Shown here: positions 3,458 through 59,184 of the stretch, one piece after another
How the letters are laid out: each line of letters opens with the position of its first letter
Position numbering within the stretch: position 1 is the first letter of the stretch
IMG/VR virus record: IMGVR_UViG_3300042922_000225
Location: 1-59,393 of that record
DNA length: 59,393 nucleotides
Source of the DNA: a virus
Lineage: Duplodnaviria; Caudoviricetes
Reading direction: 5' to 3' (one strand)
Program-made: the position numbers and the translations under genes
Notes under the pieces: generated by a model
Databases searched by the model: none
Seen by the model: only the letters and a program-made list of their open reading frames with translations
Told to the model about the DNA's origin: nothing

Positions 3458-3532
3458 TGGCTGACTACCCTGGACTCGAACCAGGAACCAATCGATTAAC
3501 AGTCGAACGCTCTGCCATTGAGCTAGTAGTCA
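3458..3532 (-). tRNA. trnN: tRNA-Asn (GTT)
   Basis: Cloverleaf on - strand: acceptor TGACTAC/GTAGTCA, D arm GCTC/GAGC, anticodon loop CT-GTT-AA, T arm CCTGG-TTCGAGT-CCAGG, encoded CCA. Confidence 0.95.
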
Positions 3533-6027: not shown

Positions 6028-6634
6028 TGTGGTTCCTCTTCTCTTGTCGATATTTTGTCATCGCGATCTTACACTGCTCGCATTTACATCCAAAATTTGC
6101 ATACGCATTTACACTTCCGTGCCTTGGATCGGATGCAGGCAGACCTTCTCTTTTCCGTTCTTTGGCTTTATCTCGCTTACATACGCGACAATATCTTCGT
6201 CCACCCAGAACATACGTTGAGTTCTCAGTATAGGGGTGCCCTCGGGTACAACTTTTACGTCCCGCAAAATTGTGTCGTCCATGCAGAATTGTATCCCGGT
6301 TGTTGTCGAAACTGTTACCGCGCCGAAGGTTAGAGACTCGGTTGTTAAGCGGGTTGCCATCCCCGTGAAGCACCAATTCTCCTTGACCTGATAGCCTATC
6401 CTCAAAAGCCAAAGCAACCAGTCTGTGCGCCTTACGGGCCAAGGATCCTCCTCTCCCGTCCGATAGCCGGTAGACGGGGTATCCGCCTGTTGACGATCCG
6501 GGACGAAGAACTCGTTTACTTAAGTGGCTATAGACTTCTCCCCCCTCAGAAATTGAATATCGCCCTGAAAAACCAGGGACCTCTCGCCACTCCACGTTCG
6601 GGTTCACCTCGTCACCCCCTCGATTATTTTTCAC
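6008..6634 (-). CDS. NUMOD4-HNH homing endonuclease
   Basis: WREVPGFSGRYSISEGGEVYS (NUMOD4), AHRLVALAF, VLHGDGNPLNNRVSNLR (HNH), C-terminal CTRGH..CRVC. Confidence 0.9.
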   Translation of the reverse strand: MKNNRGGDEVNPNVEWREVPGFSGRYSISEGGEVYSHLSKRVLRPGSSTGGYPVYRLSDGRGGSLARKAHRLVALAFEDRLSGQGELVLHGDGNPLNNRVSNLRRGNSFDNNRDTILHGRHNFAGRKSCTRGHPYTENSTYVLGGRRYCRVCKRDKAKERKREGLPASDPRHGSVNAYANFGCKCEQCKIAMTKYRQEKRNHIGPGTD

Positions 6635-15350: not shown

Positions 15351-15777
15351 GGGATAATCCTTTCTCCCACTCGTGCGAAGTAGTCCTCATGTGACGGGGC
15401 AAGGGTCACCTTAGTCATGTGGTGGGGGTTGCCTCGCTCAATCGGAATCCACTCGTTGGCGATGATGCGGTCGTTAGCATCCAGGGTTACGCGGCGGGGG
15501 TTCACGGAAGCACCCGAACCCGCACCATGGAAACGAATTCATGCCCGCTACCCGTTGAAACCCCGATGTCCTGCACGGCATTTTTCAGTCCGTAACTGGT
15601 CATCGTATATGGGTCGGAGTGGTCGTTAAGAAAAGTCAGGACGTAGATGCCCTTGTCGTGGTTCACGGTGCCTCCTTAGGCGTTGTCGTTGTTGGTACTC
15701 ACAGTAAACCACAAAACCCCCGGCTGCGCAAGAGGCAAACGGGGGTTCGTGGGGGGGGGGGGGGATTCACCACAGGT

Positions 15778-18493: not shown

Positions 18494-18712
18494 GGTTCCT
18501 CCTTAAGGCTGTTGTATGGGTAGGTACGTCAGTAAGAAGGTGCAAACGGATACCCGAAAGTGCAGACATGGGCCTCGACCCCGATAGCTTCAAGCCGCTC
18601 CCTAGTCACTTCAGCGTCTTCCTCGGTCTCGTAGATCCAGGCGCTTTTGACTTTGACATCGGGGGTGTAAACGTAGAACATTGCTGCCTCCTCAGGCTGT
18701 TGTGTTGGTACG

Positions 18713-22849: not shown

Positions 22850-23214
22850 CCCGCAAAACGGATCGAGTTGTCAACCTCGGCAAGCTCAATCAGGTAGGGC
22901 AGCAGGTCATCGCCACGCTCACCCGCATCACGCAGCGCCTTGACGGCAGTACCGTATGCGGTTACGTCGGCGTCGTCACGCAGGTAGTAGGCGTTTCCGT
23001 TTGCGTCCACGTAGAAGGACTCACCCTGACCGTTGCCCTGCTTATCAGCAGCCCAGAAGCACGCGGTGTCATCCTCGGTGGCGCACATGGCGACCGTGGG
23101 GGTGGGGGCCACGTAGGCGGGGGGTGCAGTGAGGGCGGTGAATGCCAGGGTGCCAGCGATACCCACGGCGAGCGCGGATACGGCGGTGATTGCTACTGCG
23201 GTGCGAGTGTTCAT
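22846..23214 (-). CDS. Exported or membrane-anchored protein
   Basis: N-terminal signal/TM segment, then CATEDDTACFW...GNGQGESF. Confidence 0.7.
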   Translation of the reverse strand: MNTRTAVAITAVSALAVGIAGTLAFTALTAPPAYVAPTPTVAMCATEDDTACFWAADKQGNGQGESFYVDANGNAYYLRDDADVTAYGTAVKALRDAGERGDDLLPYLIELAEVDNSIRFAG

Positions 23215-23238
23215 GATTGCTCCCTTGTTTGTAGTTAC

Positions 23239-23267
23239 AGTTTGCCACGTTTAGGGTTGCGTGTCAA
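23239..23267 (-). promoter_or_regulatory. SigA-type promoter TTGACA-17-CAAACT
   Basis: First leftward promoter at the divergence point. Confidence 0.75.
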
Positions 23268-23592
23268 GCCGATTGGGGATGAGTTTGGTAACGAATGTAT
23301 AACGTACATAGGGCTCATGCATATGCACGTAGCGGCATACAGTGGGGCGCAGCGGAGGGTGGGAGGGGGTATGTCGTATGCGGCATAAGAGGTCTCGGAT
23401 TGTATGCGGATAGGGGCATGTTTTGGGGCGGGGAGGCACCGCATCCACGATCTTTCCCCTAGATTTCCTCACCCCAACAAAAGGTCCCTCACAGCACTTT
23501 CCCAGCTACACGGCCAGCCCTCCAAAAATTCTCTGATACGGTAGAAGTACAGAAGGTGGGAACAGCCCACCACCGCAACAGGAGGAGCAGGC

Positions 23593-23841
23593 ATGGACGA
23601 CGAGTACGACATCACCCGGGACATCGCGGAGTTCATGGCCCCGTACGTGGAGTGGTCCACCGAGCCCGCCCCCAGTGGCGAGTGGGAGCCGATCACCGAG
23701 GAGCAGGCCCAGGCCAACTTCCTGGAGTTCGTAGACCGAATCTCGGCTGTCGCGTGGGAACGGGGCTACGCTACCGGGCGGTTCGATTCTTCTGGCGGGT
23801 TCACCCACCCAGCACACAACCCCTACGAGGAGCAAGCATGA
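23593..23841 (+). CDS. Hypothetical acidic protein
   Basis: GGAGGAG RBS; AVAWERGY..HNPY motif. Confidence 0.65.
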   Translation: MDDEYDITRDIAEFMAPYVEWSTEPAPSGEWEPITEEQAQANFLEFVDRISAVAWERGYATGRFDSSGGFTHPAHNPYEEQA

Positions 23842-24008: not shown

Positions 24009-24186
24009 ACATGCCGCACCACATCTCATGGAGTGAGACTCTGTCAGCCGGGCAGATTGAAGTCACGGTTTGCTATGAGGACGGAACCGTGTACGATGCT
24101 AATCAGGGTTGCGGGGTTTGCTCCCTACGATCCTGGCTAGAGGACATTGACCGGTGAACGAAACAACTACAACAGGAGGAGCAAGC

Positions 24187-27275: not shown

Positions 27276-27515
27276 GTGAAGGCCCTTTGGAGCGGCATTA
27301 ATTACATCTCCGAGGGAAATCCGTGGATTACGGGTCTTTGCCTAGTTTGGCTGGGGTGCATCGGTTTCTTGCTTCTAGGTCTTTTGGTCATCCCCGTTGT
27401 TGCCGCGTTTCACGGAGAGCCGAGCGTTCTTTGGTTCTATGCACCGATAGCGTTGTTCTCGTTTGTTATGTGGCGCGCTGTGAAGTGGGATTCTAAGAAG
27501 GAGGGCCGTCGATGA
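27276..27515 (+). CDS. Two-TM membrane protein
   Basis: Two hydrophobic segments; coupled. Confidence 0.6.
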   Translation: MKALWSGINYISEGNPWITGLCLVWLGCIGFLLLGLLVIPVVAAFHGEPSVLWFYAPIALFSFVMWRAVKWDSKKEGRR

Positions 27516-27706
27516 ACGAAGAAATCATCGCACGATGGGTTGCCGCTGAGATGGTCGCAGAGGGCGTCGTTACCCGCAAGGACGGCGTGCTGATTGTGAG
27601 CGCGTCTGGGCGGGACTTCATGATCGAGGTTAAGGCTTTTGAGATTACCGAGCCTAAGACCGCGGTGAAGATTTTGACGGAGGTTGAAGGTGGTCGAACC
27701 GATTGA
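27512..27706 (+). CDS. Hypothetical protein
   Basis: ATGA-coupled, AGGAGG RBS. Confidence 0.55.
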   Translation: MNEEIIARWVAAEMVAEGVVTRKDGVLIVSASGRDFMIEVKAFEITEPKTAVKILTEVEGGRTD

Positions 27707-27851
27707 GCCCGATTCTTGCCGGTACTGCGATACGCCTAAAACCCGGCACGCCATCCAATGGGTTGACGGTTTAGGCTACCACAACTGGATTACCCCAACA
27801 GACGAACAGAGATTGTCCCGGATGAGGAATCGCAGGGCAGGGTCCGAATAG
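27690..27851 (+). CDS. Small Cys/His protein (53 aa)
   Basis: Manually translated MVEPIEPDSCRYC...HAIQW...GYHNWITPTDEQRLSRMRNRR; GGAGG RBS. Confidence 0.55.
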   Translation: MVEPIEPDSCRYCDTPKTRHAIQWVDGLGYHNWITPTDEQRLSRMRNRRAGSE

Positions 27852-27867
27852 CCTGCTGCACTGGAAA

Positions 27868-27928
27868 GTAACCTCCTCTGTTGTTGACGGCCCCCTTCTC
27901 GCTAACCCGCGGGGAGGGGGTCTTCTTT
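27868..27928 (+). ncRNA. Candidate sRNA with an anti-leader seed ACCUCCUCUGUUGUUG and a terminator
   Basis: Degenerate motif CTGCTGCACTGG at 27853, unpaired seed, then the hairpin CCCCCTTCTCGC/GCGGGGAGGGGG and a T-rich tail. Confidence 0.4.
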
Positions 27929-27974
27929 CGTATAAGGAGTGCGCTGATAAACTGGCTTTAGGAGGAAATGGCTT

Positions 27975-28499
27975 ATGAGTGATGAAGTGGCGATCCCAGA
28001 CCCGAACCGGGTGACCAAGTACATCTGGCGTAACATTGGCAAACGCAGCGCCCGGGAGATGGCCCAGGAACTCGGAGTCAGCCCCGAGGAGATCCTGCGG
28101 GCTAAGCGTGAGCTTGTCGAGGGCGTGGACGAGCTTACGATTCAGCTTCAAAAGGCTAAGCTGATGGAGTCCCTTCAAGAGATCGCGGATGACGCCAAGG
28201 AAGCGGCCATGAACGCCTCCGACGAGCGCAATAAGGCGGGTCTTTATAACGCCGCCGCCGGTTCCATTGACAAACTTCTCAAGGAATTCAACCGGACCTC
28301 CAAGAACGAATCCGAAGCCCTCAACGCCCTTAACCGAGCCCGAATTCAGGAGCTTGTGGAGCTTGTCCAGGAAACCGTTGACGAATCGGTGATCGAACTT
28401 TCCACCCGGTACGAAATTCCCGAACAGGACATCTACGACGTGTTCAACACCCACCTGGGGCGGGCCGCAGAGCGCCGGGACGCGGAGCTTAAGCGTTGA
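27975..28499 (+). CDS. terS: Terminase small subunit
   Basis: N-terminal HTH (SAREMAQELGVSPEEI), helical remainder, immediately upstream of TerL. Confidence 0.7.
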   Translation: MSDEVAIPDPNRVTKYIWRNIGKRSAREMAQELGVSPEEILRAKRELVEGVDELTIQLQKAKLMESLQEIADDAKEAAMNASDERNKAGLYNAAAGSIDKLLKEFNRTSKNESEALNALNRARIQELVELVQETVDESVIELSTRYEIPEQDIYDVFNTHLGRAAERRDAELKR

Positions 28500-30118
28500 A
28501 TCTGACAGATGTTGCCCGGGGCGCACAGGTAGAACTTCTCGTCAAAGCCCGTAAGCGTCAATACTTCAATGACCCCGTGCTGTGGGCAAAGGATTATCTG
28601 GGGATCGTTCCTTGGTCCGCCCAAGCCGATGTCGCAATGAGCCTGGTCGATAATAAGAACGTTGTTGTTAAGGCCGGTCACGAAGTCGGTAAGTCTTGGC
28701 TTGCCGGTCTTCTGATCTGTTGGTGGGTCGACACCCGCTGGGACCTCCCCGGCGGTTGCTTCGTGGTCTCTACTGCCCCCTCCACGCGTCAGATCAACGC
28801 TATCGTCTGGCGAGAAGTTCGCAAGTTCTACAACGTCGCAAAGAAGCGATACGCAGAGGGCAAGATCGACCACCCCCTCCCCGGCTACATCACCTCCGAT
28901 GCTCACTGGAGACTGCCGGACGGAATTGAACTCGGATACGGCGCTAAGCCCCCCGAGGGCGCGGACAAGGATTCCGGTAACGACTCGATGTCGGGTATCC
29001 ACGCGAGATACGTGCTAGCCGTGGGTGATGAGGCAGTCGGTCTAACGAAGGGCCTTATTGGCGACCTCGCGAACATCACATCCAACGCCACTTCACGCCG
29101 GTTCCTGATTTGTAACCCCACGAACCCGCTTGCTTACGTCGCATCGATCTTCAAGCGCGACCTCCAGGGCTGGTCCAAGCACACGATCAGCGTCTTCGAC
29201 AGCCCGAACTTCCACGGTCGAGGCGTGTGTGACCCCGAGAAGTGCAAGAAGTACGAAGAGCATCAATCGATGGAGCCCTACGAGGGATTCCCACGAGAAG
29301 TGCTTGAAACGCTCGTTGACCAAAGCTACGTTGACGACATTATCGAAGAGCACGGGTTTGGATCGCCCACCTACATCTCCCGCGTTACCGGCGAGTTTGC
29401 ATGGGACATGGGGTTCACCCTCATCCGGCCCGAGGACATCGCCAAGGGCATGGACGTGCTCATTATTCCGAGTGAAGATTCTTCCCCCGTCCTCGGCGTT
29501 GACGTGTCCCGATCTAAGTCCGGCGATAAGAACACCGTCTACCGGTACCACGATGGCAAACTTCGGTTTGTCGATGACTGGAACGATCCCAACGCCGTCA
29601 ACACCGCCGCTCGAATCCACCGACTGGCGATGGAGAACGGGGTAAGCGAAGTTCGCATTGACGGTGCGGGTCTGGGTGGCCCCATTGCCGACCTTGTACG
29701 AGAGCACGCTCAGGACCGATATCTTGTCATCGAAATCCTGGGTAACGACCCCTCGCCAGACAAGCACCGCTGGCAGAACCACCGTGCGTGGTCGTGGTGG
29801 TCTTTCCAGGATCGACTCTCTAAGGGCGAGATTGACCTGGATGGCGAAGACGAGAAACTCCAAGAGCAGCTACTTGGTGTCGAGATCAAGAAGCGCACCT
29901 CGGGTAACAACAGCCTCCTCCTGGAAAGCAAGCAGGAGATGGCAAAGCGCGGCATTCACTCCCCGGACCATGCCGACGCCGCGGTGTACGCTGCAACTGA
30001 CCTTTCTTGGTGGCTGAACCGGGAGCCAGCGGGGAGCGTCCACGCAATGGACCGCGCCGAAATCCCCGACATGGGCTTCTCGCAGTACCTCAACCGGCCC
30101 GGCATGCCGTGGCTTTAA
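28496..30118 (+). CDS. terL: Terminase large subunit
   Basis: Walker A AGHEVGKS, Walker B VGDEA, CNPT, nuclease LGVDVSR, IDGAGLG, SPDHADA. Confidence 0.93.
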   Translation: MNLTDVARGAQVELLVKARKRQYFNDPVLWAKDYLGIVPWSAQADVAMSLVDNKNVVVKAGHEVGKSWLAGLLICWWVDTRWDLPGGCFVVSTAPSTRQINAIVWREVRKFYNVAKKRYAEGKIDHPLPGYITSDAHWRLPDGIELGYGAKPPEGADKDSGNDSMSGIHARYVLAVGDEAVGLTKGLIGDLANITSNATSRRFLICNPTNPLAYVASIFKRDLQGWSKHTISVFDSPNFHGRGVCDPEKCKKYEEHQSMEPYEGFPREVLETLVDQSYVDDIIEEHGFGSPTYISRVTGEFAWDMGFTLIRPEDIAKGMDVLIIPSEDSSPVLGVDVSRSKSGDKNTVYRYHDGKLRFVDDWNDPNAVNTAARIHRLAMENGVSEVRIDGAGLGGPIADLVREHAQDRYLVIEILGNDPSPDKHRWQNHRAWSWWSFQDRLSKGEIDLDGEDEKLQEQLLGVEIKKRTSGNNSLLLESKQEMAKRGIHSPDHADAAVYAATDLSWWLNREPAGSVHAMDRAEIPDMGFSQYLNRPGMPWL

Positions 30119-32598: not shown

Positions 32599-33056
32599 TG
32601 GCAACGAACGTTTACCGCAAGTACGCCGGTTTCCGTAACGAGGAGTGGGAAGTCCCCGCTGGTACTCGTGCGGGCCAGGTCGTTATCAACGGCACGGATG
32701 GTCGTGTGGGCCTCGCCCTCACTTCGCGCGGCGATGTTACGGCGGCTTACACCCTTCCGAACGGTCTGACGATCAGCAACAACCCCGTTGGTGGCACCGG
32801 CAACAAGCCCGACTGCGCCACCGTGGGTGTTGAGGGTTACGACGCTCTCCTGACCGTTACCGGCGTCACTGCCGGTGAGACCGTGGGCACCGGCCAGACC
32901 GGCACGGCCCAGGGCACCCCCGTTTACGGTGTGGTCTCGGGCGGCGCAATCACGTCGTACACGACCAGCGCTTCGGGCAACACTAAGATTGGCGTTATCG
33001 CTGACGGCAACATTGTCGGCGGCGTCGCCCCGGTTTCGATTGGAGTTGACCTCTAA
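32598..33056 (+). CDS. Capsid decoration (cement-like) protein
   Basis: Gly/Thr-rich beta protein between scaffold and major capsid genes. Confidence 0.65.
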   Translation: MATNVYRKYAGFRNEEWEVPAGTRAGQVVINGTDGRVGLALTSRGDVTAAYTLPNGLTISNNPVGGTGNKPDCATVGVEGYDALLTVTGVTAGETVGTGQTGTAQGTPVYGVVSGGAITSYTTSASGNTKIGVIADGNIVGGVAPVSIGVDL

Positions 33057-34201
33057 TGGCACTCGACCTTACTTGCGGCGGTCGCCTTAACGTCAGCCCG
33101 ATGGTGACTGAGCGTAGCGTTCAGCGCATGGCTCAGATTGTTGAGGGTATCAAGCTCGGTGGATACGCTGGTGAGCGTGCCCGCACGGACTTCAAGGAGA
33201 CCCTGACCACCTCTGACGCCCCCTACTCGTTCGCACAGCTTCTGAACATCCGGAACCTGCCGCTCTACGATGAGGCTCCCGTCCAGTGGAACCAGATCGC
33301 CAGCACCGAGAGCGTCCCGGACTTCCGTCCCACGTCGTTCTACTCGCTGCGTTCGAACTTCGCTACTCTGGGTCACGGCAACGGCACGGGAGGCAACCTG
33401 GTTGCTCCCAAGGTCCCGGAGCTGGGCTCGTATGTCGAGGCTTACGGTTACTCGGAGGAGGCCGTTCAGGTCGCCGTTGAGAAGCGAGGCTTCGCGTGGG
33501 GTATCTCGCTGGAGCGAGTCGTTAACGACCCGACCCGCGCGTACTCGCAGGTCCCTAACGACATGCTGAACGTCGGCACCAAGACGGATGAGTACGTTGT
33601 CTTCAGCGCCCTCGTTGACGGTGCCACCGCCGCGTCGCAGGTTGAGGGTGGAGTTGACCTGGTTACGGGCGACACCGTTCCGGCTAACCCCGTCATCTCG
33701 CCCGCCGCTATCCGCGTCGCCCTCCGGAACATCTCGGCCCGCACGGACGACCAGGGTAACAAGATCCCGCTCGCCCCGCGCTACCGCGTTGTGGTTTCCC
33801 TTGGCGAGGGTGACACGGTTGAGTGGATGCTCCAGGAGGCGGGCAACATCATCCGCGTCCAGGATGGCAACATCACCTACGGTGCCCCCGGTGCTGGTGG
33901 TCTGAACCGTATCGCTGGCGTCATCGAGTCGGAGTTCATCCCGGAGGGCTCGTGGTACCTGGTCCCGGACGCTGGCAGCACGGTTCGCCCGTCGCTGGTT
34001 CGTGTTCAGCTCCAGGGCTACACCGCGCCGGAAGTTTACGTCGAGGGTACGCCCGTGCCTGTTCTCGGCGGCGCTTCGAACGACCCGTTCCGCGCGTTCT
34101 CGTGGCACGACGACTCGGCCCGCTTCAAGTTCCGCATGTTCACCAACGCGGCGTTGATTACTCAGGATCAGCTCTCCTGGAGTGATGGCTCTGAGGCATA
34201 G
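33056..34201 (+). CDS. Major capsid protein
   Basis: 381 aa, strong codon bias, synteny, followed by a terminator; ETLTTSD, VPDFRP, VPELGSY. Confidence 0.88.
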
Positions 34202-34223
34202 AGTCTGCTAAACTAGAAGTAGC

Positions 34224-34264
34224 AGGCGAGCCCCCGTGGGAAACTGCGGGGGTTTCGCCTTTTC
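34224..34264 (+). terminator. Intrinsic terminator after the capsid operon
   Basis: AGGCGAGCCCCCGTGG-GAAA-CTGCGGGGGTTTCGCCT-TTT. Confidence 0.8.
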
Positions 34265-34278
34265 TAGAAGGAGATTGT

Positions 34279-34797
34279 GTGTGTAGCGTCGAGGGCTGCG
34301 AACGAAAAATGAAGTGCAAGGGCATGTGTTCAATGCACTACGACCGACTTCGTTTACGCGGAACGGTGGAACTAACGCGTCCATCCACCGAGGGGGAATG
34401 CCAGCTACTCGGGTGCGATAACCGAATAGCGTCAAAGGGTTACTGCAAGTTGCATTACGAGCGCATACGCCGAAATGGCACTCCCGGGATCGTAGGTACC
34501 GGCAGGCGTCCCAGAGGGGCGGGAGCCGATCACGGTGGGTACGTCCGAGTGCGCGTTATGCGGGGAGGGGTGGAGACAAAGATATTTGAGCACCGATATG
34601 TGATGGAGCAACATCTGGGCCGGGAACTGGAACCCCATGAGAACGTCCACCACATTAACGGGGTCCGAGACGACAACCGGATCGAGAACCTGGAGTTGTG
34701 GAGCACATCCCAGCCTAAGGGCCAACGAATTGAGGATAAGACCGCTTGGGCAATTGAGTGGTTGAAGGCCTACGCGCCCGACAGGCTGGTAAACTAG
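34279..34797 (+). CDS. HNH homing endonuclease with two N-terminal Cx4C..CxxH zinc fingers
   Basis: [31 protein letters not shown]. Confidence 0.9.
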
Positions 34798-35123: not shown

Positions 35124-36476
35124 ATGCCCCGTCAGCCCGACAGGACCCTCCGATCCGGCACCGCAGACTACACCGTCTTGGTGGACGAGAAGGGCGTGCC
35201 TTACAAAGCCGGAGTGACCATCCAGCAAGTCGAGGGCGGCTTCGACCCCACAGGACTTGCTACCGATGCCAAGCAGGATGAGATCGTTACGGCCCTGGGC
35301 GCTGTGGCGGACGCAGTTTCCACGGAGAGTGCTGTCACTATCCTGGACGACGAGCTTCCGCCCGTGCAGGGCCAGGCCACCTCCAACAAGCAGGACGCCA
35401 TTATTTCGGCACTGAACACCCTGGCTAGCCGGATGGACATGCCCCTGGACGTGGAGGTCGGTAACGATTCGATTACGGTCTCCATTCCCTCGCTTCCGCT
35501 GGCTGACGGCGCTGCTACCTCTGCCAAGCAGGATCAGGCTTTGGAGGTATTGGGTGTCCTTCGGGACATCTTTCAAAACGGAACCCTGGGAGTTACCGGG
35601 GAACTAGGGCTTAAGCCCGCTGACATTGCCGCGCTGAAAACCGTCACCCTAGACAACCCCAGCATCGCCATTACTTCGTCTTCGCCTCTTTCGGTAAACC
35701 TGCCGGGAGTATCCACAGCGGACAAGCAGGACGCAATCCTGGCTCGCCTCCAGACGCTTATCGACAACTCCCTGGCACCCCGGCCTATCACCGATAACAG
35801 CGGGTCTATCACCGTGGACGGCGCTGTGGGTATCTCCGGCCCGGTCCAGGTCGAAGACAACGGCAAGTCTCTCACCGTGGATGGCATGGTAGCGGCCACT
35901 CAGTCCGGCCCCTGGAATGTTACGGTTACAGACGGATCAGGACCCCTTACGGTAGACGGCTCAGTCGCGGTCACAGACGCCACAGGAAACGGCCTGACAA
36001 GCGCTACAGCAGCGCCCGGAACCTCCGACCGGGGTCTTGTCGTCCGGAACATTCCTTCCGGCACTCAGGCGGTCTCAGGAACGGTTGCGGCCACGCAGTC
36101 CGGCACCTGGACCATGAATGTCAACTCCGCCCCTTCTGCCACCGCCCCAGCGCTCACCCCGTTCCGCACCACGTCCCTTACTGCCACGCCCCAGCAGATT
36201 AAGGCTTCCGCAGGGCGGGTCTACCAGTATAGTTTCCACAACCCCAACAACGCACCTGTTTACGTGCACTTCTGGGGTCTGCTGGCGGCTAACGTCACGC
36301 CCGGAACTACGGTGCCCGCCGTGACTCTCGGCGTTCCCGCGGGCTCGGTACTGGACGGTTACTGGACGGTCTCCCCGGCGGCTTTTGCGAGTGGCATTAC
36401 GGTCTCGGCCTCCACATCGTCTGCGGGGACAGGTGCGCCCAACACGGGACTTCTGGCCCAGGTCGGCTACGTCTGA
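35124..36476 (+). CDS. Repeat-rich fibre or decoration protein
   Basis: Four AT.xKQD repeats and three D.xG.xTVDG repeats; Ser/Thr/Ala/Gly-rich. Confidence 0.65.
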   Translation: MPRQPDRTLRSGTADYTVLVDEKGVPYKAGVTIQQVEGGFDPTGLATDAKQDEIVTALGAVADAVSTESAVTILDDELPPVQGQATSNKQDAIISALNTLASRMDMPLDVEVGNDSITVSIPSLPLADGAATSAKQDQALEVLGVLRDIFQNGTLGVTGELGLKPADIAALKTVTLDNPSIAITSSSPLSVNLPGVSTADKQDAILARLQTLIDNSLAPRPITDNSGSITVDGAVGISGPVQVEDNGKSLTVDGMVAATQSGPWNVTVTDGSGPLTVDGSVAVTDATGNGLTSATAAPGTSDRGLVVRNIPSGTQAVSGTVAATQSGTWTMNVNSAPSATAPALTPFRTTSLTATPQQIKASAGRVYQYSFHNPNNAPVYVHFWGLLAANVTPGTTVPAVTLGVPAGSVLDGYWTVSPAAFASGITVSASTSSAGTGAPNTGLLAQVGYV

Positions 36477-36727
36477 TGCCGGAGCTTAAGCCTACGGGCA
36501 AGATCATCGCACGAGGTCAGTCAGGGTTCTCAGTGCTCAGTACGGGTGTTGACATCGCGTTTGACCGTCCTATGCCGGAAGGTTCCACCTACAAGGTCTT
36601 CTACCGCCAGATATCAGGTGTGAACGTTGGACTCCCGTCAACCTCGAACCAAACCCCTACTGGATTCCGGGCTTCAGTTGGCATAGGCGTTGCCGCACAG
36701 TTTGAGTGGCTGGTGATTGAGGACTGA
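36476..36727 (+). CDS. Small beta-rich structural protein (H-type lectin/gp53-like)
   Basis: IAFDRPM...NQTPTGF...FEWLVI; coupled to the fibre gene. Confidence 0.55.
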   Translation: MPELKPTGKIIARGQSGFSVLSTGVDIAFDRPMPEGSTYKVFYRQISGVNVGLPSTSNQTPTGFRASVGIGVAAQFEWLVIED

Positions 36728-36739
36728 TAAGATTGAATT

Positions 36740-36835
36740 AGACGGGTGCCCCTCCCGTTGGCTGCTAGTTACCCTCCTCTCTCGCTAGCGCCAGGCCCCT
36801 CGGTTGAGCGTCCCACTTCCGCTCCCGAGGGGCTT
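36740..36835 (+). ncRNA. Candidate three-hairpin sRNA with C/U-rich loops
   Basis: Motif CTGATAAGAT at 36724, then three stems with loops UGCCCCU, UACCCUCCUCUCUC and UCCCACUUC; no ORF. Confidence 0.55.
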
Positions 36836-36855
36836 AAACTTTCCCAGCGTCTTCC

Positions 36856-36909
36856 CAGGTTGTGGGTGGCGGTTTGGGGTTGAGGGGTGGTAGTGTCGAG
36901 GTAGACAAC
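36856..36909 (+). repeat. 54-bp moron promoter cassette, copy 1
   Basis: 50/54 identical to 41683-41736; contains the extended -10 TGGTAGTGT. Confidence 0.85.
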
Positions 36910-36924: not shown

Positions 36925-37380
36925 GTGATCGAATCTATCTTCTTTAACCCCTGGATCTGGATCGGGACCACCCTATGCACGATCCTGGTGGCGGTACTGA
37001 TTTTCGCAGTAGTGAGGGCTATTAGGGGCTCTGACGGGTATCTGGAGGACTGGCCCTGGATTACGGCTATCATCTCGGGCATCCTCGCCCTAGTTTTGGT
37101 GCCGACCCACTTCGGGTTTGTGCTCCCGCCCTACGACGCTTCGTTCTATCAGACCTACCGAATTACCGGGGAAGTGACGAGCATCGAGGCAGCGTTTAAC
37201 GGCGAGGAGGGGACCATGAGTCAGGTATTTGTCGCGGAGGTCGAGGGTGTAGACCTATTCATCCGTTCCGACGATCAGCGGTTCCGCACCGTCGATACGG
37301 GCGATGACGTGAACCTCGTTTGCACAAAGCAGTTCCGGTACTTCCAGCAGCCTTGGTACGATTGCAGCTTCGGAGGCTGA
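36925..37380 (+). CDS. Moron membrane protein (two TM plus a C-terminal soluble domain)
   Basis: Two hydrophobic helices, GAGGAGG RBS, own promoter, terminator at ~37390-37423. Confidence 0.7.
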   Translation: MIESIFFNPWIWIGTTLCTILVAVLIFAVVRAIRGSDGYLEDWPWITAIISGILALVLVPTHFGFVLPPYDASFYQTYRITGEVTSIEAAFNGEEGTMSQVFVAEVEGVDLFIRSDDQRFRTVDTGDDVNLVCTKQFRYFQQPWYDCSFGG

Positions 37381-54087: not shown

Positions 54088-54864
54088 TCAGATAGCGCGA
54101 ATCTCTGACGACGCCACTCGCTTTGTCTCCCGGAACCACGAGCCGCAGTCCAGGCACACAAGGCGTTGGTAATGGCCGGTGAGGGTCTTAGCCGTCCCGC
54201 GCTTCTGGAGGCTTGTAGAGCCGCAAGAGTGGCACGAGAACGGGTTGGACGGGTCCGCTGGATGGGGCATCTTGATGAAGGATTTCATCTCGTCAAACAA
54301 AGGCAGAAGGAGCTTGGTGTCCTTGATGCTGTACCGGCGCATCTTGTTCCACGCCCGCGTGCGGATTGCCTCATCCTCTGAGTTGCATTCAAGGGCCAAC
54401 TGCATCGTGTTGACATCGATCTTGCGATCCTCAAGCAACAGGGCTGAGACGTAATCGAGTTTCCGGGACAAGAACCGCGAGTGCTGCTTAGCCACCTGGA
54501 ACATGTCGATGTGCTTCACAGGCGGCGGTGCGCTCCATCCCTCCAGCAGGAAGGAGCCCTCGATCCACGGCCAGTCAAATCGCTTTGAGTTCCAGCCCAT
54601 GATGACATCGGCCTCAGAGACCAGATCGTATAGACCCTTGAGCATCCCGAGGTAGTCGCCCTCGTTGTGGTGCTCGCTGTCGAACAGGGTCTTCTTGGTT
54701 CCCACCCACTGCGCGCTGTAACACATGATCCGGCTGGGTGAAATGATCTGCCGGTGCCCAATGATCGGCTGCCACAAATCGTACGTCCACACGGCGGCGG
54801 GCATAATCTCAATATCCAGCGCCAGGATTTTCAGCTTCGAATGAGCTTCTACTGTATCACTCAC
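54088..54864 (-). CDS. RNase H-fold (DnaQ-like) exonuclease with a C-terminal zinc ribbon
   Basis: LALDIE, GWNSKRFDWP, HIDM, SRKLDYV, YSIKD; CHSCGS..CLDCGSW. Confidence 0.82.
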   Translation of the reverse strand: MSDTVEAHSKLKILALDIEIMPAAVWTYDLWQPIIGHRQIISPSRIMCYSAQWVGTKKTLFDSEHHNEGDYLGMLKGLYDLVSEADVIMGWNSKRFDWPWIEGSFLLEGWSAPPPVKHIDMFQVAKQHSRFLSRKLDYVSALLLEDRKIDVNTMQLALECNSEDEAIRTRAWNKMRRYSIKDTKLLLPLFDEMKSFIKMPHPADPSNPFSCHSCGSTSLQKRGTAKTLTGHYQRLVCLDCGSWFRETKRVASSEIRAI

Positions 54865-54891
54865 TTTGTCCCCTCTCCTCGTTCAAGTCTA

Positions 54892-55071
54892 CTAAACCTC
54901 TCTCCAGATGATGTTGAAGCTGTGAAGGCCCTGAGACTCCTCGATCCGCCGGTACACCTCGTGCTCCAGCCGGGGCTTGGACGACTCGTGAACGAAGTCA
55001 TCGAGCGTTGTCACATAGGCCGTCCACTCGTTGCGCCGAACGTGCGTGATATCGACCGGGATGTAGTTCAC
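54892..55071 (-). CDS. Hypothetical protein
   Basis: GTG start after AAAGGAGG. Confidence 0.5.
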   Translation of the reverse strand: MNYIPVDITHVRRNEWTAYVTTLDDFVHESSKPRLEHEVYRRIEESQGLHSFNIIWREV

Positions 55072-55250
55072 AGCAGCCCCTCCTTTATTGCCCACTTGAT
55101 GCACGCCACGGGGTCTCCACTGCCGAAGCGCTGCCCGTCAAGAAACTCAATCACTCTATCCACTCCTTCTTTGTACCCCATCGTCTGATAGACCGTGATT
55201 CGGTCCCAGCTTTCACCGAAGTCTTCGTCGTTGAAGTCGGCGTATCTCAC
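55068..55250 (-). CDS. Hypothetical protein
   Basis: Packed ORF. Confidence 0.5.
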   Translation of the reverse strand: MRYADFNDEDFGESWDRITVYQTMGYKEGVDRVIEFLDGQRFGSGDPVACIKWAIKEGLL

Positions 55251-55298
55251 TTTGCCAGCCCCAGCCTCTCTTCCAGTCTTGCAAGAATCTCGTCGTAG

Positions 55299-55985
55299 TC
55301 AGTCATTGATCGCCTTCCAAGCACCATAGCTGATCGGGAACAGTGTTGCAATCCCCGCTTCGATCTTCTGAGCTACCTCCACGATTTCAAGCTGTGGGTG
55401 CCCGTGTGAGCCGTTACGGAGCTTCAGCACATCGAACCATGCCCGGAGGTTTCCTGAGACGTAGAAGGACGTGTAGAGGCCCTGTGGGAGCACCGCGCGG
55501 GCTACTTCCTTGGCGACGCCGTTCTTCAACATCAGGTTATACTGCTCGACGGCCTTGGCGGATGCAATCTCGATCCGGGTAACGGTGTTGGCGTTGAGGT
55601 TAAACCAGTCAGGGTCCTCGGGATCAAGGTGACCCATCTCAGGCCGAGCAGACGTACCCTTGTTCACCAAAGGGCGGTCAGCATCGGGAACCCAGAACAC
55701 GGGGTCTGGCTCGGTGTACCGTCCGGACTGCACGGAGAACGACAGGTGGCGGTGGCGAGTAATCTGCGCCAGCACGAACAGCGGTGCTTCTACCCGGAAG
55801 GTGGCCCCCAGGTGCTCAAACGGTGCAAAATGCCCTTCAGAAATCAGGTACTTAATCAGCCCGTTAAGGCGCTCAAGGCTTACGGTCTGCCCGCCGGTAG
55901 AAACCCGTGCAGCAGAGGCCGCGTCCTCATCGGAGCCCCAGTGCTGGAGGACATCTACCGTCATGTCACTTCGGAATTCAGTCAT
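55299..55985 (-). CDS. thyX: Flavin-dependent thymidylate synthase
   Basis: AARVS, GHFAPFEH, RHRHLSFSVQSGRY, AKEVARAVLP, NLRAW. Confidence 0.95.
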   Translation of the reverse strand: MTEFRSDMTVDVLQHWGSDEDAASAARVSTGGQTVSLERLNGLIKYLISEGHFAPFEHLGATFRVEAPLFVLAQITRHRHLSFSVQSGRYTEPDPVFWVPDADRPLVNKGTSARPEMGHLDPEDPDWFNLNANTVTRIEIASAKAVEQYNLMLKNGVAKEVARAVLPQGLYTSFYVSGNLRAWFDVLKLRNGSHGHPQLEIVEVAQKIEAGIATLFPISYGAWKAIND

Positions 55986-56138
55986 CGCTTCTCCCACCAC
56001 TCCCCGAACGCCGCACGTCCAGCGCTCTCTGCCGCCACTTCACTAGTGTAGTTGTCGTCCATGAAGATCAGATCCCCGTTGACTACGGTCGTCACGTCGT
56101 AAAGCTCGTGCTCATTCTTGTCGATGTCAATTTGCAGC

Positions 56139-56717
56139 TTAGCCATTGTCCTCCACCCATTCTGTCAGCAATGTAAAAGTCGGCTTGTGTTTCATCTCTC
56201 GCGCCAGGTAAGCAATACCGTGAGCAACCGAAGAGCGTGCGTCGTTATAATCCTTCAAAGTCTCTCCGATCTCCTTCCGGCCAACATAGTATCCTGAGTC
56301 CTCTAGGAACTGATCCCGGCGCTTTTTCTTGTCCGCAAGACTGTCACCCCCGACCAGATATTGGAACTTCGGGTCACGATACCGCTTGCGGTCATTCCTG
56401 TCAACCAACCCACGATCAATCAGGACACCGATTACGGGAAGGGCTTCAAGCGATACCGTCGTATAGTTGAAATTCTTGGTGTTTCGGGCGGTGAAGGCTT
56501 CACAAATCACGTCTTCAGGCTCGATCCAGGCCGCATCAACTCGAAACCCGATATGCGGCTCAACCTGCCGGGAGGAGAACCAATCGCTCATGCCTTCCGC
56601 ACCGCCCCGGAACTGAGTGGCGTACTCCAGCACCGGCAAGGTCTCTTCGGTGTACGAGAGAACCGAGATTCCCGACTCTAGGCCCGGGTCGATGGACAGG
56701 ATGTAGTTGTCAGTCAT
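56139..56717 (-). CDS. RuvC-like Holliday junction resolvase
   Basis: ILSIDPGLESG, VICEAF, NDARS. Confidence 0.75.
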   Translation of the reverse strand: MTDNYILSIDPGLESGISVLSYTEETLPVLEYATQFRGGAEGMSDWFSSRQVEPHIGFRVDAAWIEPEDVICEAFTARNTKNFNYTTVSLEALPVIGVLIDRGLVDRNDRKRYRDPKFQYLVGGDSLADKKKRRDQFLEDSGYYVGRKEIGETLKDYNDARSSVAHGIAYLAREMKHKPTFTLLTEWVEDNG

Positions 56718-56877
56718 CTGTGGGCTCTGCCTGCCGCGGGAAAATCTTCAGCGTTCGGTTATCGTCCTGGAGGTGCAGTTCAATGCCTCCGCTCCACGCC
56801 CCGTACCGCTCAAAAACGGTCCCGTCTTCTAGAATCACCGTGATCCGGGTGACGTTCTTCAGATCGTCGTACTTCAC
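56710..56877 (-). CDS. Hypothetical protein
   Basis: VTRITVI...LQDDNRTLKIF; GAGGAG RBS. Confidence 0.6.
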   Translation of the reverse strand: MKYDDLKNVTRITVILEDGTVFERYGAWSGGIELHLQDDNRTLKIFPRQAEPTDD

Positions 56878-57004
56878 TTCTTCTCCTCGGTGTGACACTC
56901 GCAGGCGCACGGCCTGGTAACGAAACGATAGCACATCTCATGGCTTCCTGGCGACACCCACGTGCAAAAACCGCTCCTGTCCATGCCGCTCTTGTGGTCA
57001 GACA

Positions 57005-58843: not shown

Positions 58844-59184
58844 AGGTTCTCACGCTCCAAGATAGCAAGTACATCTTTCGCACCGCCGTAGGGGTCCTCG
58901 TTACCATACTCGATCGCCCAAGACTTCTGATGCTGAATAGCCCGTTTCAATTCGTCCCGAAGACCCGTGAGCGCCGCACGGAGGGTCTTGTACTCCTTCG
59001 ACACACGCTTGTAAACGTAGCCGTCGTGCCAGACCGTGAAACGAGGCCCATCGCCGTAGCTGTAGGTCGTCTCGATGCTCCAGTGGCAATCCTTGTCCTT
59101 GGGGTGATCCACGTTGACAAGCTCGTACCAGATACCGCTCAACCGAACGATCTCATCAGACAGCACGTTGTAGTCGTCGCTCAC
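58840..59184 (-). CDS. Hypothetical protein
   Basis: HPKDKDCHW..SYG motif; coupled to polA. Confidence 0.65.
   Translation of the reverse strand: MSDDYNVLSDEIVRLSGIWYELVNVDHPKDKDCHWSIETTYSYGDGPRFTVWHDGYVYKRVSKEYKTLRAALTGLRDELKRAIQHQKSWAIEYGNEDPYGGAKDVLAILERENL

Follow-up and report, generated by a model that had tools for sequence, protein, structure and literature searches.

A terminator and C-rich tract before the terminase genes of a Microbacterium-type phage, probably a short allele of a conserved small-RNA cassette

The spacer between the small genes and terS

The window, i.e. the whole stretch of 59,393 nucleotides that was analysed, belongs to a lytic Microbacterium-type phage, as judged from its TerL (78.7% to that of phage WaterT). 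A short stretch separates the last small rightward gene from the putative terS, and the following features are found there:

27684-27851, + strand: 55-aa ORF of unknown function that closes the rightward block of small genes before terS; matches phrog_20506 (unknown function) at E 7e-12
27852-27869, + strand: degenerate extended -10 copy CCTGCTGCACTGGAAAGT, from comparison with 11 exact CTGNTAAACT sites and their contexts
27870-27888, + strand: C/U-rich tract AACCUCCUCUGUUGUUGAC, single-stranded, with the anti-SD core CCUCCU (the "seed" of the original prediction)
27889-27930, + strand: intrinsic terminator, 14-bp stem, 6-nt loop and U-rich tail
27944-27953, + strand: CTGATAAACT, extended -10 promoter-like motif before terS
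27975-28499, + strand: putative terS, 174 aa, overlapping the TerL start, with an HTH-like N-terminal stretch
28496-30118: TerL, phrog_2, 1e-17

The terS label is putative and is given by position only: a family search with the 174-aa protein returned no significant match, and its homologue in phage Cassita is annotated as "DNA binding protein". Searching 27400-28500 against the phage collection with blastn gave no match. The relatives described below were reached via TerL, DNA similarity to known phages having given none. Over the whole window Rfam reports tRNA only, and ARAGORN finds one tRNA-Asn.

The stop codon of the 55-aa ORF, at 27849-27851, lies directly 5' of the element. The original prediction described a C/U-rich seed before terS with a strong terminator behind it, and this layout is what we observe: ACCTCCTCTGTTGTTG occupies 27871-27886 on the + strand, 20 nt past the stop of ORF 27684-27851 and 2 nt ahead of the hairpin 27889-27922. 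This hairpin, which starts 38 nt past a stop codon, is an intrinsic (Rho-independent) terminator: ten of its 14 pairs are G-C, the loop spans 6 nt and TTCTTTCG forms the tail. The fold of 27845-27935 has an MFE of -35.6 kcal/mol (z -3.06), and one in 200 shuffles is equally stable. The tract itself is mostly unpaired, with a probability of 0.7-0.96 outside UCC. An antiterminator fold, in which the seed pairs with the terminator's 3' arm, is not competitive (-18.3 against -31.8 kcal/mol for the terminator). A reading of the tract as a Rho-utilisation site was set aside because the intrinsic terminator comes directly after it. On the other strand, the reverse complement resembles an early-type RBS with a GTG and a 23-codon frame; it overlaps ORF 27684-27851 and was judged spurious. 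Elsewhere in the window, a C14 run stands directly ahead of another terminator, on the minus strand at 15751-15764.

Promoter-like motifs flank the terminator on both sides, and all TAnnnT motifs are called promoter-like here by their pattern only. Upstream, CTGNTAAACT recurs in degenerate form as CCTGCTGCACTGG (27852-27864); exact copies of it number 11 in the window where 0.23 would be expected. All of these are on the + strand, between 25297 and 52400, and upstream of rightward genes. Three of them sit 9-10 nt before an ATG, so that the mRNAs made there would be nearly leaderless. The pattern TGNTANNNT-N7-AACCTCC, with one mismatch allowed, gives one match. By its pattern, the window's own candidate -10, TGCTGCACT, lacks the -11A, as had been cautioned: the hexamer TGCACT (27857-27862) has G at its second position, 27858. 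Downstream of the terminator, CTGATAAACT is followed by the terS SD AGGAGG at about 27961-27966.

The short form of the element is kept in the near relatives X2 and X3. X2, which is ~97% identical to the window, has A for G at 27858, giving TACACT, i.e. TGCTACACT, and X3 carries TGATACGCT where the window has TGCACT. Both thus show TGnTAnnnT at the site of the defective -10, and since both keep the A, the missing -11A is particular to the window's genome. Among the X2 differences listed (26 of 27), those within 27852-27974 are 27858 G>A and one inserted T, against at least 18 changes in terS. A further contig, X4, has 18 differences to the window, six of them listed. X3 is identical to the window over 27877-27948, while its upstream flank is unrelated. 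The inserted nucleotide in X2 lies inside the seed and alters the register between its two half-sites; by our reading X3 also appears to have a 1-nt insertion inside the seed.

Pairing of the tract with early leaders

It had been proposed that the complement of the tract resembles the leaders of early genes, three of which were cited. These leaders do exist in the window. Two of them contain CAACAGGAGGAG, at 23576-23587 and 24170-24181, which is 17 nt to the left of where they had been placed; 23593 and 24187 are ATGs, each 6 nt downstream of a copy. The third, at 18680, is present as a reverse complement, being the leader of the minus-strand gene 18529-18681. When up to three mismatches are allowed, the complement of the 16-mer seed has one match in the window, which is itself (0.42 expected). 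For the shared 12-mer there are two occurrences where 0.31 would be expected, and 3 of 100 shuffles contain at least two. In RNAduplex the three leaders take ranks 1, 9 and 15 among 94 predicted leaders, with the strongest duplex (-22.0 kcal/mol) formed between the seed and the leader of gene 18529-18681. Further, leaders of the leftward arm pair better with the seed than late leaders do (-12.4 vs -9.9 kcal/mol, Mann-Whitney p 0.0026).

These values bear on the idea that a discrete RNA of ~55-60 nt, made late and carrying the seed at the 5' end ahead of the terminator, would mask early and host ribosome-binding sites in trans and so act as an early-to-late switch. The accessible seed, the ranks of the cited leaders and the better pairing of the leftward arm all agree with it, and an RNA directed against SDs in general would spare the late genes, whose SDs are weaker or whose starts are nearly leaderless. 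X2 and X3 also have TGnTAnnnT at the right distance, and the late-type motif is the promoter-like element of the relatives' RNAs described below.

However, the preference for early leaders is not specific to the seed. In 300 trials that kept the core CCUCCUC and shuffled the other nine nucleotides, the real seed did not stand out: flank shuffles equalled or exceeded it in a fraction of 0.44 for the mean energy, 0.21 for the top ten leaders and 0.08 for the early-minus-late difference. Bare CCUCC likewise prefers early to late leaders (Mann-Whitney p 0.007), because early leaders have stronger SDs; the 5-mer SD core is present in 35 of 54 leftward-arm leaders and in 8 of 27 late ones. The CAACA part is found in 12/67 early and 2/27 late leaders, an enrichment that is not significant (Fisher p 0.34). 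The complementarity is thus that of a generic anti-SD, coming from the CCUCC core, and the claim of specific antisense targeting of early leaders, for which the match would have to exceed that of the generic core, finds no support. An untargeted anti-SD RNA would also need great abundance to compete with ribosomes. With the window's -10 lacking the -11A, and with the inserted nucleotide in the seed of X2 and, by our reading, of X3, we regard a discrete late RNA of this kind as decidedly unlikely. That the tract has some trans-regulatory role in the window's genome, of whatever kind, is rather doubtful.

The RBS of terS was considered as a preferred target, either in cis or as a neighbour. In WaterT the terS leader ranks 2 of 125 with annotated starts, and with our own gene calls it ranks 1 of 103 against the loop of the first hairpin (HP1, see below) and 3 of 103 against that of the second (HP2). 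Against the two loops it ranks 5/100 and 4/100 in G001 and 6/26 and 7/26 in G004, a 22-kb fragment. However, the corresponding ranks are 59/92 and 42/92 in G002 and 33/85 and 27/85 in G003, and in the window the terS leader ranks 42/94 against the seed. The preference is inconsistent across phages and so not general, and it was dropped as the main mechanism.

A conserved cassette in more distant relatives

In 13 distinct relatives, among them the cultured phages WaterT and Cassita, the same position holds a longer arrangement: a TAnnnT -10, a predicted RNA of ~105 nt, a long terminator and a terS promoter-like motif. The predicted RNA has two hairpins with C-rich loops of the UCCCUCCCUU type. 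The arrangement is annotated in none of the 13. They fall into group A (L002, L059, L022, L152, L083 and L133), group B (L015, L140, L014, WaterT as L154 and Cassita as L155) and group C (L019 and L020). When folded individually, all 13 give HP1, HP2 and the long terminator with C-rich loops, and in each the first structured base follows 6-8 nt after a TAnnnT hexamer. Across loci the upstream genes differ while the RNA body is retained, and TAAACT or TACAAT is found between the terminator and the terS SD in those relatives whose sequence reaches that far. The genomic slot of the window's element is the same, past the last small rightward gene and before the terS promoter-like motif and SD, on the same strand.

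Among the relatives' hairpins the stems vary and the loops are kept, which points to an RNA and not to a DNA-binding site. In HP1, 93% of the cells are paired and five of the six pairs are changed on both sides, while HP2 is only 69% paired in the covariation alignment. The covariation of the whole structure is 0.335 against 0.147 in shuffled alignments (reached in 0 of 500 shuffles), with the terminator helix registered 3 columns off and an effective number of sequences of 3.49 in three or four sequence groups, so that the counts reflect few events. For the terminator helix the individual folds are what we rely on. A cos or pac site was considered and rejected, given these stems and loops and that in WaterT the left end is 6.1 kb away from the element. 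WaterT genes 1-5 match its genes 123-127 in lengths, spacing and strand, and from this we read the WaterT ends as a probable direct terminal repeat.

We built a model, R1, that contains HP1, HP2 and the long terminator. The relatives score 34-106 bits, and among sequences outside the training set WaterT reaches 34.1 bits (E 5e-8) and Cassita 37.5 bits. R1 finds one pre-terS copy each in the four long genomes or contigs G001, G002, G003 and WaterT, as well as in the fragment G004, which has an additional weak match on the minus strand (19.2 bits, E 8e-4).

The window's element (27834-27927) gives no significant match to R1 (4.6 bits, E 8.6), and its membership in the cassette comes from position, a MAFFT alignment and shared motifs. 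The HP1 and HP2 loop hairpins are absent. In the MAFFT alignment, the seed falls on one arm of the group A terminator hairpin and the 3' arm of the window's terminator on the other; the tract agrees with the 5' arm of the group A hairpin at 14 of 19 positions.

This alignment can also be taken to mean that the locus is a terminator only, and that the C/U tract is chance or a leftover, for instance the former 5' arm of a longer stem. The seed aligns with an arm that is paired in the relatives and can still pair with the 3' arm here (-18.3 kcal/mol), and R1 does not recognise the region. SD-bearing leaders match any 16-mer that contains CCUCC, and C-rich tracts before terminators recur in the window, as the C14 run illustrates. 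We nevertheless consider a bare terminator quite unlikely, for X3 is identical over 27877-27948 despite its unrelated upstream flank, X2 and X3 have the promoter-like TGnTAnnnT suitably spaced, and a similar loop motif, UACCCUCCUCUCUC, is found in a second element of the same genome:

36726-36845, + strand: candidate full-length paralogue, with CTGATAAGAT (-10-like), 7 nt, three hairpins at 36741-36836 and then TAAACT

Its three C-rich loops are UGCCCCU, UACCCUCCUCUCUC and UCCCACUUC, and the loop of its HP2 is similar to the window's tract. The element lies in a 197-nt gap between ORF 36476-36727 (also given as 35124-36727) and ORF 36925-37380, and folds with an MFE of -48.1 kcal/mol (z -4.48, 0 of 200 shuffles). 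The R1 match at 36741-36840, 15.3 bits with an E of 0.021, is the best of 17 in the window with filters off. This is a weak match, and we take the paralogy as a lead suggested by sequence. In the genomes of five relatives R1 finds no equivalent of it, bar the weak minus-strand match in G004. The 450-aa protein beside the element has no relative in the viral contigs, and a 17-nt exact pattern matched nothing but an unrelated coding region.

Beyond the 13 relatives the arrangement becomes variable. In Microbacterium phage Fork, whose TerL is 37% identical, TGATACAAT, a predicted 73-nt terminated hairpin RNA and TGATAGGAT precede terS. Arthrobacter phage Amigo has a plain terminator only before its terS-like gene. 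A terminator is present and the C-rich motif absent in five other loci (L025, L027, L028, L029 and L031), and L026 carries UUACCUCCUUUCAC ahead of a terminator. In the genome collection, a scan with a single protein found no relative, and a scan with a profile yielded a single contig, L013, from a MAG labelled Omnitrophota, where no cassette was seen.

The order found in the relatives can also be read as the leader of the late operon, acting in cis. Transcription from the upstream promoter would end at the terminator as long as the polymerase is not made resistant, be it by a factor of the phage or by the nascent RNA itself; recognition would lie in the kept hairpin loops, and the short RNA would be a by-product. 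Such a leader would be akin to PR'-6S RNA-tR' of lambda with Q, to N/nut hairpins or to the put RNAs of HK022. The promoter-like motif, the two hairpins with kept loops and variable stems, the terminator and the late operon are found in this order in 13/13 relatives, co-oriented with terS. A similar pre-terS order exists in Fork, and the 36.7-kb element of the window sits within the late region. However, the window, like those relatives that reach that far, has another promoter-like motif downstream of the terminator and ahead of terS, so that terS could do without read-through. A scan of 20 of the window's proteins, most of which have no family at all, revealed nothing Q-, N- or sigma-like, and the window's copy has lost both hairpins, yet the genome looks intact. 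We therefore hold such a cis-acting leader to be unlikely.

A probable short allele and its likeness to known systems

The reading that we prefer, and regard as probable, is that 27852-27930 is a terminator together with a short and presumably promoter-dead allele of a conserved C-rich small-RNA cassette. It would be a noncoding spacer that ends the rightward small-gene block and insulates the terS and structural unit, made up of a decayed extended -10 copy, an 18-nt accessible C/U tract with an anti-SD core, and a very stable terminator. In the lineage the order would be a promoter, a small RNA with C-rich accessible motifs and a terminator, directly before the terS promoter-like motif. A small-RNA cassette at this position is plausible from what the 13 relatives share, namely a -10-like motif, a C-rich accessible motif and a terminator. 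The form seen in the window may have arisen through loss of both loop hairpins. With the promoter presumably inactive here, the tract would be transcribed, if at all, as the 3' end of an mRNA coming from upstream. It could also be that the noncoding stretch is conserved simply through the need for a terminator and a terS promoter.

The product of the cassette may be 6C-like and use C-rich single-stranded parts to bind G-rich ribosome-binding sites. One could go further and suppose that such an RNA, made from a late-type promoter, masks strong G-rich sites of host and early genes, and that late mRNAs with weak SDs or no leaders escape; the role of the C-rich loops would in the window's genome be taken by the bare CCUCCUC tract, by the 36.7-kb paralogue, or by both. 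This extension is improbable in our view. If true, it would be an RNA-based translational takeover or early-to-late switch.

The cassette is conserved, and unannotated, in the cultured phages WaterT, LeeroyJenkins, Lifes, BarnCat and Cassita of Microbacterium paraoxydans. If the RNA is made, these phages would offer an experimental handle on what the abundant ncRNAs of actinobacteriophages do, and on generic anti-SD RNAs and leaderless late genes as a means of re-programming translation by phages. Highly expressed ncRNAs, whose function is unknown, are described in Rhodococcus phage WC1 and in the mycobacteriophages D29, Kampy and L5 (PMC10986025). The likeness to these is by description only. 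The part of that paper available to us says nothing of C-rich loops or of a location ahead of terS. In the available parts of the literature on 6C RNA and on actinobacteriophage ncRNAs we found no description of a C-rich-loop RNA before terS, which is not proof of absence, and no literature match joined "Microbacterium phage" and "WaterT".

In phage lambda, PR', 6S RNA and tR' form a late leader, i.e. a promoter whose short transcript ends at a terminator immediately before the late or packaging genes, and the put element of HK022 consists of two hairpins that act in cis. The relatives resemble these in the order of promoter-like motif, short terminated stretch and late genes, an order that fits a small-RNA gene as well. 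They differ by the second promoter-like motif after the terminator, and in that no antiterminator protein was identified here.

The 6C RNA is defined by two hairpins with C-rich loops of six or more C. Like 6C (RF01066; B11/6C), the relatives' predicted RNAs have C-rich single-stranded loops on hairpins and an actinobacterial host setting. In contrast to 6C, they are encoded by phages, precede terS and carry a long terminator hairpin as their third; the element of the window differs further, being one terminator hairpin and an unstructured C/U tract, without the loop hairpins. The Rfam 6C model gives 14.7 bits (E 6.7) on 27866-27929 of the window, below its gathering score of 47. It has no match at E up to 10 on 2215-2360 of L020 and on 36715-36860 of the window, and none at E up to 1 on six loci. 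By analogy we take the relatives' RNAs to be 6C-like and not Rfam 6C, i.e. they may act like 6C without matching its model. According to the available part of one study, the mycobacterial 6C sRNA needs no chaperone to bind G-rich RBSs, which its C-rich loops contact directly, and growth stops when it is overexpressed (PMC6486639). Extra copies of 6C, acquired horizontally, are carried by plasmids, as the available part of another describes (PMC9569102). Should an RNA be made from the cassette, phages would carry a functional counterpart of this actinobacterial sRNA.

C-rich sequences that pair with Shine-Dalgarno sequences are also found in Staphylococcus, where the C-rich (UCCC) loops of RNAIII hairpins 7, 13 and 14 and of RsaE block translation in this way. 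These RNAs belong to another phylum and are chromosomal, not phage-borne, and no homology is implied. The anti-SD motif in the 3'-UTR of icaR likewise pairs with a Shine-Dalgarno and blocks translation, and this case fits a reading of the window's tract as part of the 3' UTR of the upstream mRNA.

Predicted pairing of the tract before terS with leaders

The 16-mer at 27871-27886, the hairpin behind it and their location before the putative terS are all as described in the original prediction, which saw in this C/U-rich tract the seed of a small RNA directed against early leaders. The leader copies of CAACAGGAGGAG do exist, but at 23576 and 24170, 17 nt further left than first placed, the earlier positions being those of the ATGs. 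The site at 18680 also lies in a real leader, but in that of a minus-strand gene (18529-18681).

IMG/VR classes the record as linear and about 90% complete (59,393 nt), and its G+C is about 0.58. According to our own rough calls of 94 genes, the leftward arm takes up 300-23214 and 54088-59184, and a divergent region (23214-23593) separates its first part from the rightward arm (23593-53870), which runs from a block of small genes through putative terS (27975), TerL (28496) and portal (30144) to head, tail and lysis genes. Sigma-70-like -35/-10 promoters are present on the leftward arm, and for this reason that arm and the first rightward genes are treated as early. Two such matches on its minus strand (21355-21327 and 20930-20902) have identical hexamers, TTGACA-17-CATACT, 425 nt apart, and the arm also holds a tRNA-Asn (GTT; 3458-3532, minus strand).

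The closest cultured relatives are the Microbacterium paraoxydans phages WaterT, LeeroyJenkins, Lifes and BarnCat, with TerL identities of 78.5-78.7%. The layout of WaterT matches that of the window, with replication genes, and also a tRNA-Leu, on the leftward arm; no integrase is found among its annotations. Its genes 1-5 and 123-127 (loci L165/L166, 54-1336 and 59599-60881) are identical in length, spacing and strand, and from these gene features we take the ends to be a direct terminal repeat that exceeds 1.3 kb.

RNAduplex pairing of the 16-mer with the 94 predicted leaders (-35 to +3) ranks the three leaders originally cited 1, 9 and 15. The mean duplex energy is -12.4 kcal/mol for leftward-arm leaders (n=54), -10.6 kcal/mol for rightward small genes (n=13) and -9.9 kcal/mol for late genes (n=27). 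The seed beats 300 full shuffles (fraction 0.007 for the mean, 0/300 for the top ten). With CCUCCUC fixed and the other nine bases shuffled, the real seed is ordinary, with fractions of 0.44 for the mean, 0.21 for the top ten and 0.08 for the early-late difference. Further, bare CCUCC gives the same preference for early over late leaders (p 0.007, versus 0.0026 for the full seed), because early leaders more often carry the 5-mer SD core (35/54 on the leftward arm versus 8/27 late leaders). Enrichment of CAACA/ACAAC in early leaders is not significant (12/67 early versus 2/27 late, Fisher p 0.34). Taken together, the core-fixed shuffles, bare CCUCC and the SD-core counts show that the resemblance to early leaders is real, yet it is what any anti-SD tract would yield, and the proposed specific pairing is not supported.

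A promoter-like motif on the rightward arm

The following features are found on the plus strand of the window.

Features in the window
25297, 27944, 30125, 31677, 34205, 34786, 37433, 42054, 46338, 48200, 52391; plus strand; copies of CTGNTAAACT, from the motif count
36726-36845; plus strand; three-hairpin RNA candidate with CTGATAAGAT upstream and TAAACT downstream, from covariance-model match and fold

The 11 copies of CTGNTAAACT (0.23 expected in the window; consensus approximately cCTGaTAAACTgGatAG) all lie between 25297 and 52400, each with a rightward gene shortly downstream. The pattern is that of an extended -10 (TGnTAnnnT) with no -35, and the motif likely represents either a class of late or rightward promoters or a sequence associated with starts; promoters in the window and its relatives are pattern matches, and are called promoter-like here. 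Three copies sit 9-10 nt 5' of an ATG, so mRNAs starting from them would be nearly leaderless.

The copy at 34205 is directly followed by a G+C-rich hairpin and an ORF of 172 aa (34279-34797) that carries an HNH-like motif. This segment (34205-34797) directly follows the likely major capsid gene (33056-34201), and the equivalent slot in WaterT holds a GIY-YIG endonuclease.

Upstream of the seed, CTGCTGCACTGG is a degenerate copy of CTGNTAAACT. As already observed in the original prediction it lacks the -11 A: the hexamer is TGCACT.

The cassette before terS in relatives and its probable short form

TerL-based scans of viral and metagenome contigs returned 11, 62 and 80 loci, and genomes gave 1; the region before terS was inspected in 23 sources (L024, a relative locus, in part) and in 27 further sources. 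In closer relatives (TerL 54-79% identical) a cassette recurs before terS. It starts directly after the last small gene with a TAnnnT hexamer (often TGATAAACT), followed after 6-8 nt by hairpins 1 and 2, both with C-rich loops, a long G+C-rich hairpin with a U-tract, TAAACT, an SD and terS. The 13 distinct sequences form three groups.

Cassette groups in relatives, by locus
Group A: L002, L059, L022, L152, L083, L133; loops CCACUCCCAC and CCCACCCCUCCU
Group B: L015, L140, L014, WaterT, Cassita; loops UCCCUCCCUUC and short UCUCCC / CCUUCCCU types
Group C: L019, L020; loops UUCCCUCCCUUC and UCCCUCCCUU

Stem sequences are wholly different between the groups, and each of the 13 folds singly into three hairpins (105-113 nt, -39 to -57 kcal/mol). 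In a model-based alignment 93% of the cells of hairpin 1 are paired, with both sides changed in 5/6 pairs, and 69% of those of hairpin 2. The covariation score of the whole structure is 0.335 versus 0.147 in shuffles and is reached by 0/500 of them; the terminator helix was mis-registered in the structure scored, which voids its figures, and the relatives represent no more than three or four independent groups. In group A the upstream genes vary by locus, while the RNA body hardly changes.

R1, a covariance model of the three hairpins trained on 11 sequences, recovers WaterT (34.1 bits, E 5e-8) and Cassita (37.5 bits), both outside the training set. There is one copy in each of the 4/4 long genomes or contigs searched, and a fifth record, a 22-kb fragment, has an additional weak match on the minus strand. 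Nothing significant was found in 144 other sources except the training groups and duplicates. In WaterT the element takes up a 183-nt gap (6080-6262) and in Cassita one of 137 nt, both unannotated; the terS-like gene 21 of WaterT is annotated "hypothetical protein".

The window element is without hairpins 1 and 2, and R1 does not recognise the region before terS (4.6 bits, E 8.6). MAFFT aligned GTAACCTCCTCTGTTGTTGAC to the 5' arm of the group A terminator (TAACCCCTTTCGTTGTTGG; 14/19 identical by our count), and the G-rich arm and U-tract to its 3' arm. Contig X2, from a public run, spans 27526-28400, where it shows 27 differences and a single gap; within 27852-27974 it has 27858 G>A and, after 27876, an inserted T (among the 26 of 27 differences listed). 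The substitution turns TGCACT into TACACT, giving TGCTACACT. Contig X3 is identical over 27877-27948 and has an unrelated upstream flank, ...GTGATACGCTAGAGTAACCTCCT, that contains TGnTAnnnT and, as we read it, carries the same extra T. Contig X4 has no change in 27860-27939 among the 6 of 18 differences listed. A promoter-like -10 is present in 2/2 short-form relatives with visible upstream sequence. This comparison indicates that close relatives retain the short form. The proposed seed is conserved in part: its anti-SD core is kept, but the register between core and UGUUGUUG is not.

Two other tracts should be mentioned. In the relative locus L026 (2275-2345; TerL 48% identical), UUACCUCCUUUCAC stands between a stop codon and a terminator hairpin, a second short form of anti-SD tract plus terminator. 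Between two leftward genes on the window minus strand, a terminator-like hairpin comes immediately after a run of 14 C (15751-15764, within 15741-15770), which makes this another C-rich tract on the 5' side of a terminator.

The best R1 match in the window is at 36741-36840 (15.3 bits, E 0.021, filters off). The predicted fold of this stretch has three hairpins, whose loops are UGCCCCU, UACCCUCCUCUCUC and UCCCACUUC (-48.1 kcal/mol, z -4.5); ORFs 36476-36727 and 36925-37380 flank the 197-nt gap in which it lies. On these weak statistics it is a probable paralogue of the cassette; relatives of this copy were searched for and none were found. The tract before terS is also similar to the hairpin 2 loop of the second element in the same genome.

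Nature of the element and known systems

The element before terS is most likely a terminator closing the small-gene block and a reduced allele of a conserved small-RNA cassette, whose promoter is probably dead in the window genome. The tract, if in any RNA at all, would belong either to the upstream message, at its 3' end, or to an RNA of roughly 60 nt produced at a low level. An antitermination leader acting in cis and resembling lambda 6S/tR' or put/nut would fit the cassette architecture equally well; we consider it unlikely, and the promoter-like motif that follows the terminator is a mild argument against it.

For a small-RNA cassette, the best mechanistic model is the actinobacterial 6C sRNA, whose C-rich single strands bind G-rich RBSs without needing a chaperone (PMC6486639). 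The cassette product would likewise pair with G-rich RBSs through its C-rich single strands, unaided by a chaperone; the element and cassette are not members of the Rfam 6C family. All such functional statements on the tract and cassette we infer from sequence.

The terS RBS was rejected as a generally preferred target. It ranks well only in group B (2/125 in WaterT; 5/100 and 4/100 in the relative G001), and poorly in group A (27-59 of 85-92) and in the window (42/94).

In the portions consulted of the literature on actinophage ncRNAs, 6C RNA and phage sRNAs, we found no description of a C-rich-loop RNA before terS. For the actinophages WC1, D29 and Kampy, one study reports abundant ncRNAs of unknown function at genome ends and middle (PMC10986025). 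In Microbacterium phage Fork (L164, 795-902; TerL only 37% identical), TGATACAAT is followed by a hairpin RNA of 73 nt that has a U-tract (-32.3 kcal/mol, z -2.0) and by TGATAGGAT 6 nt before the ATG of a terS-like gene that appears nearly leaderless. This distant phage has the same order as the window lineage, promoter-like motif, short RNA, terminator and promoter-like motif, so a short terminated transcript before terS may extend beyond this lineage.
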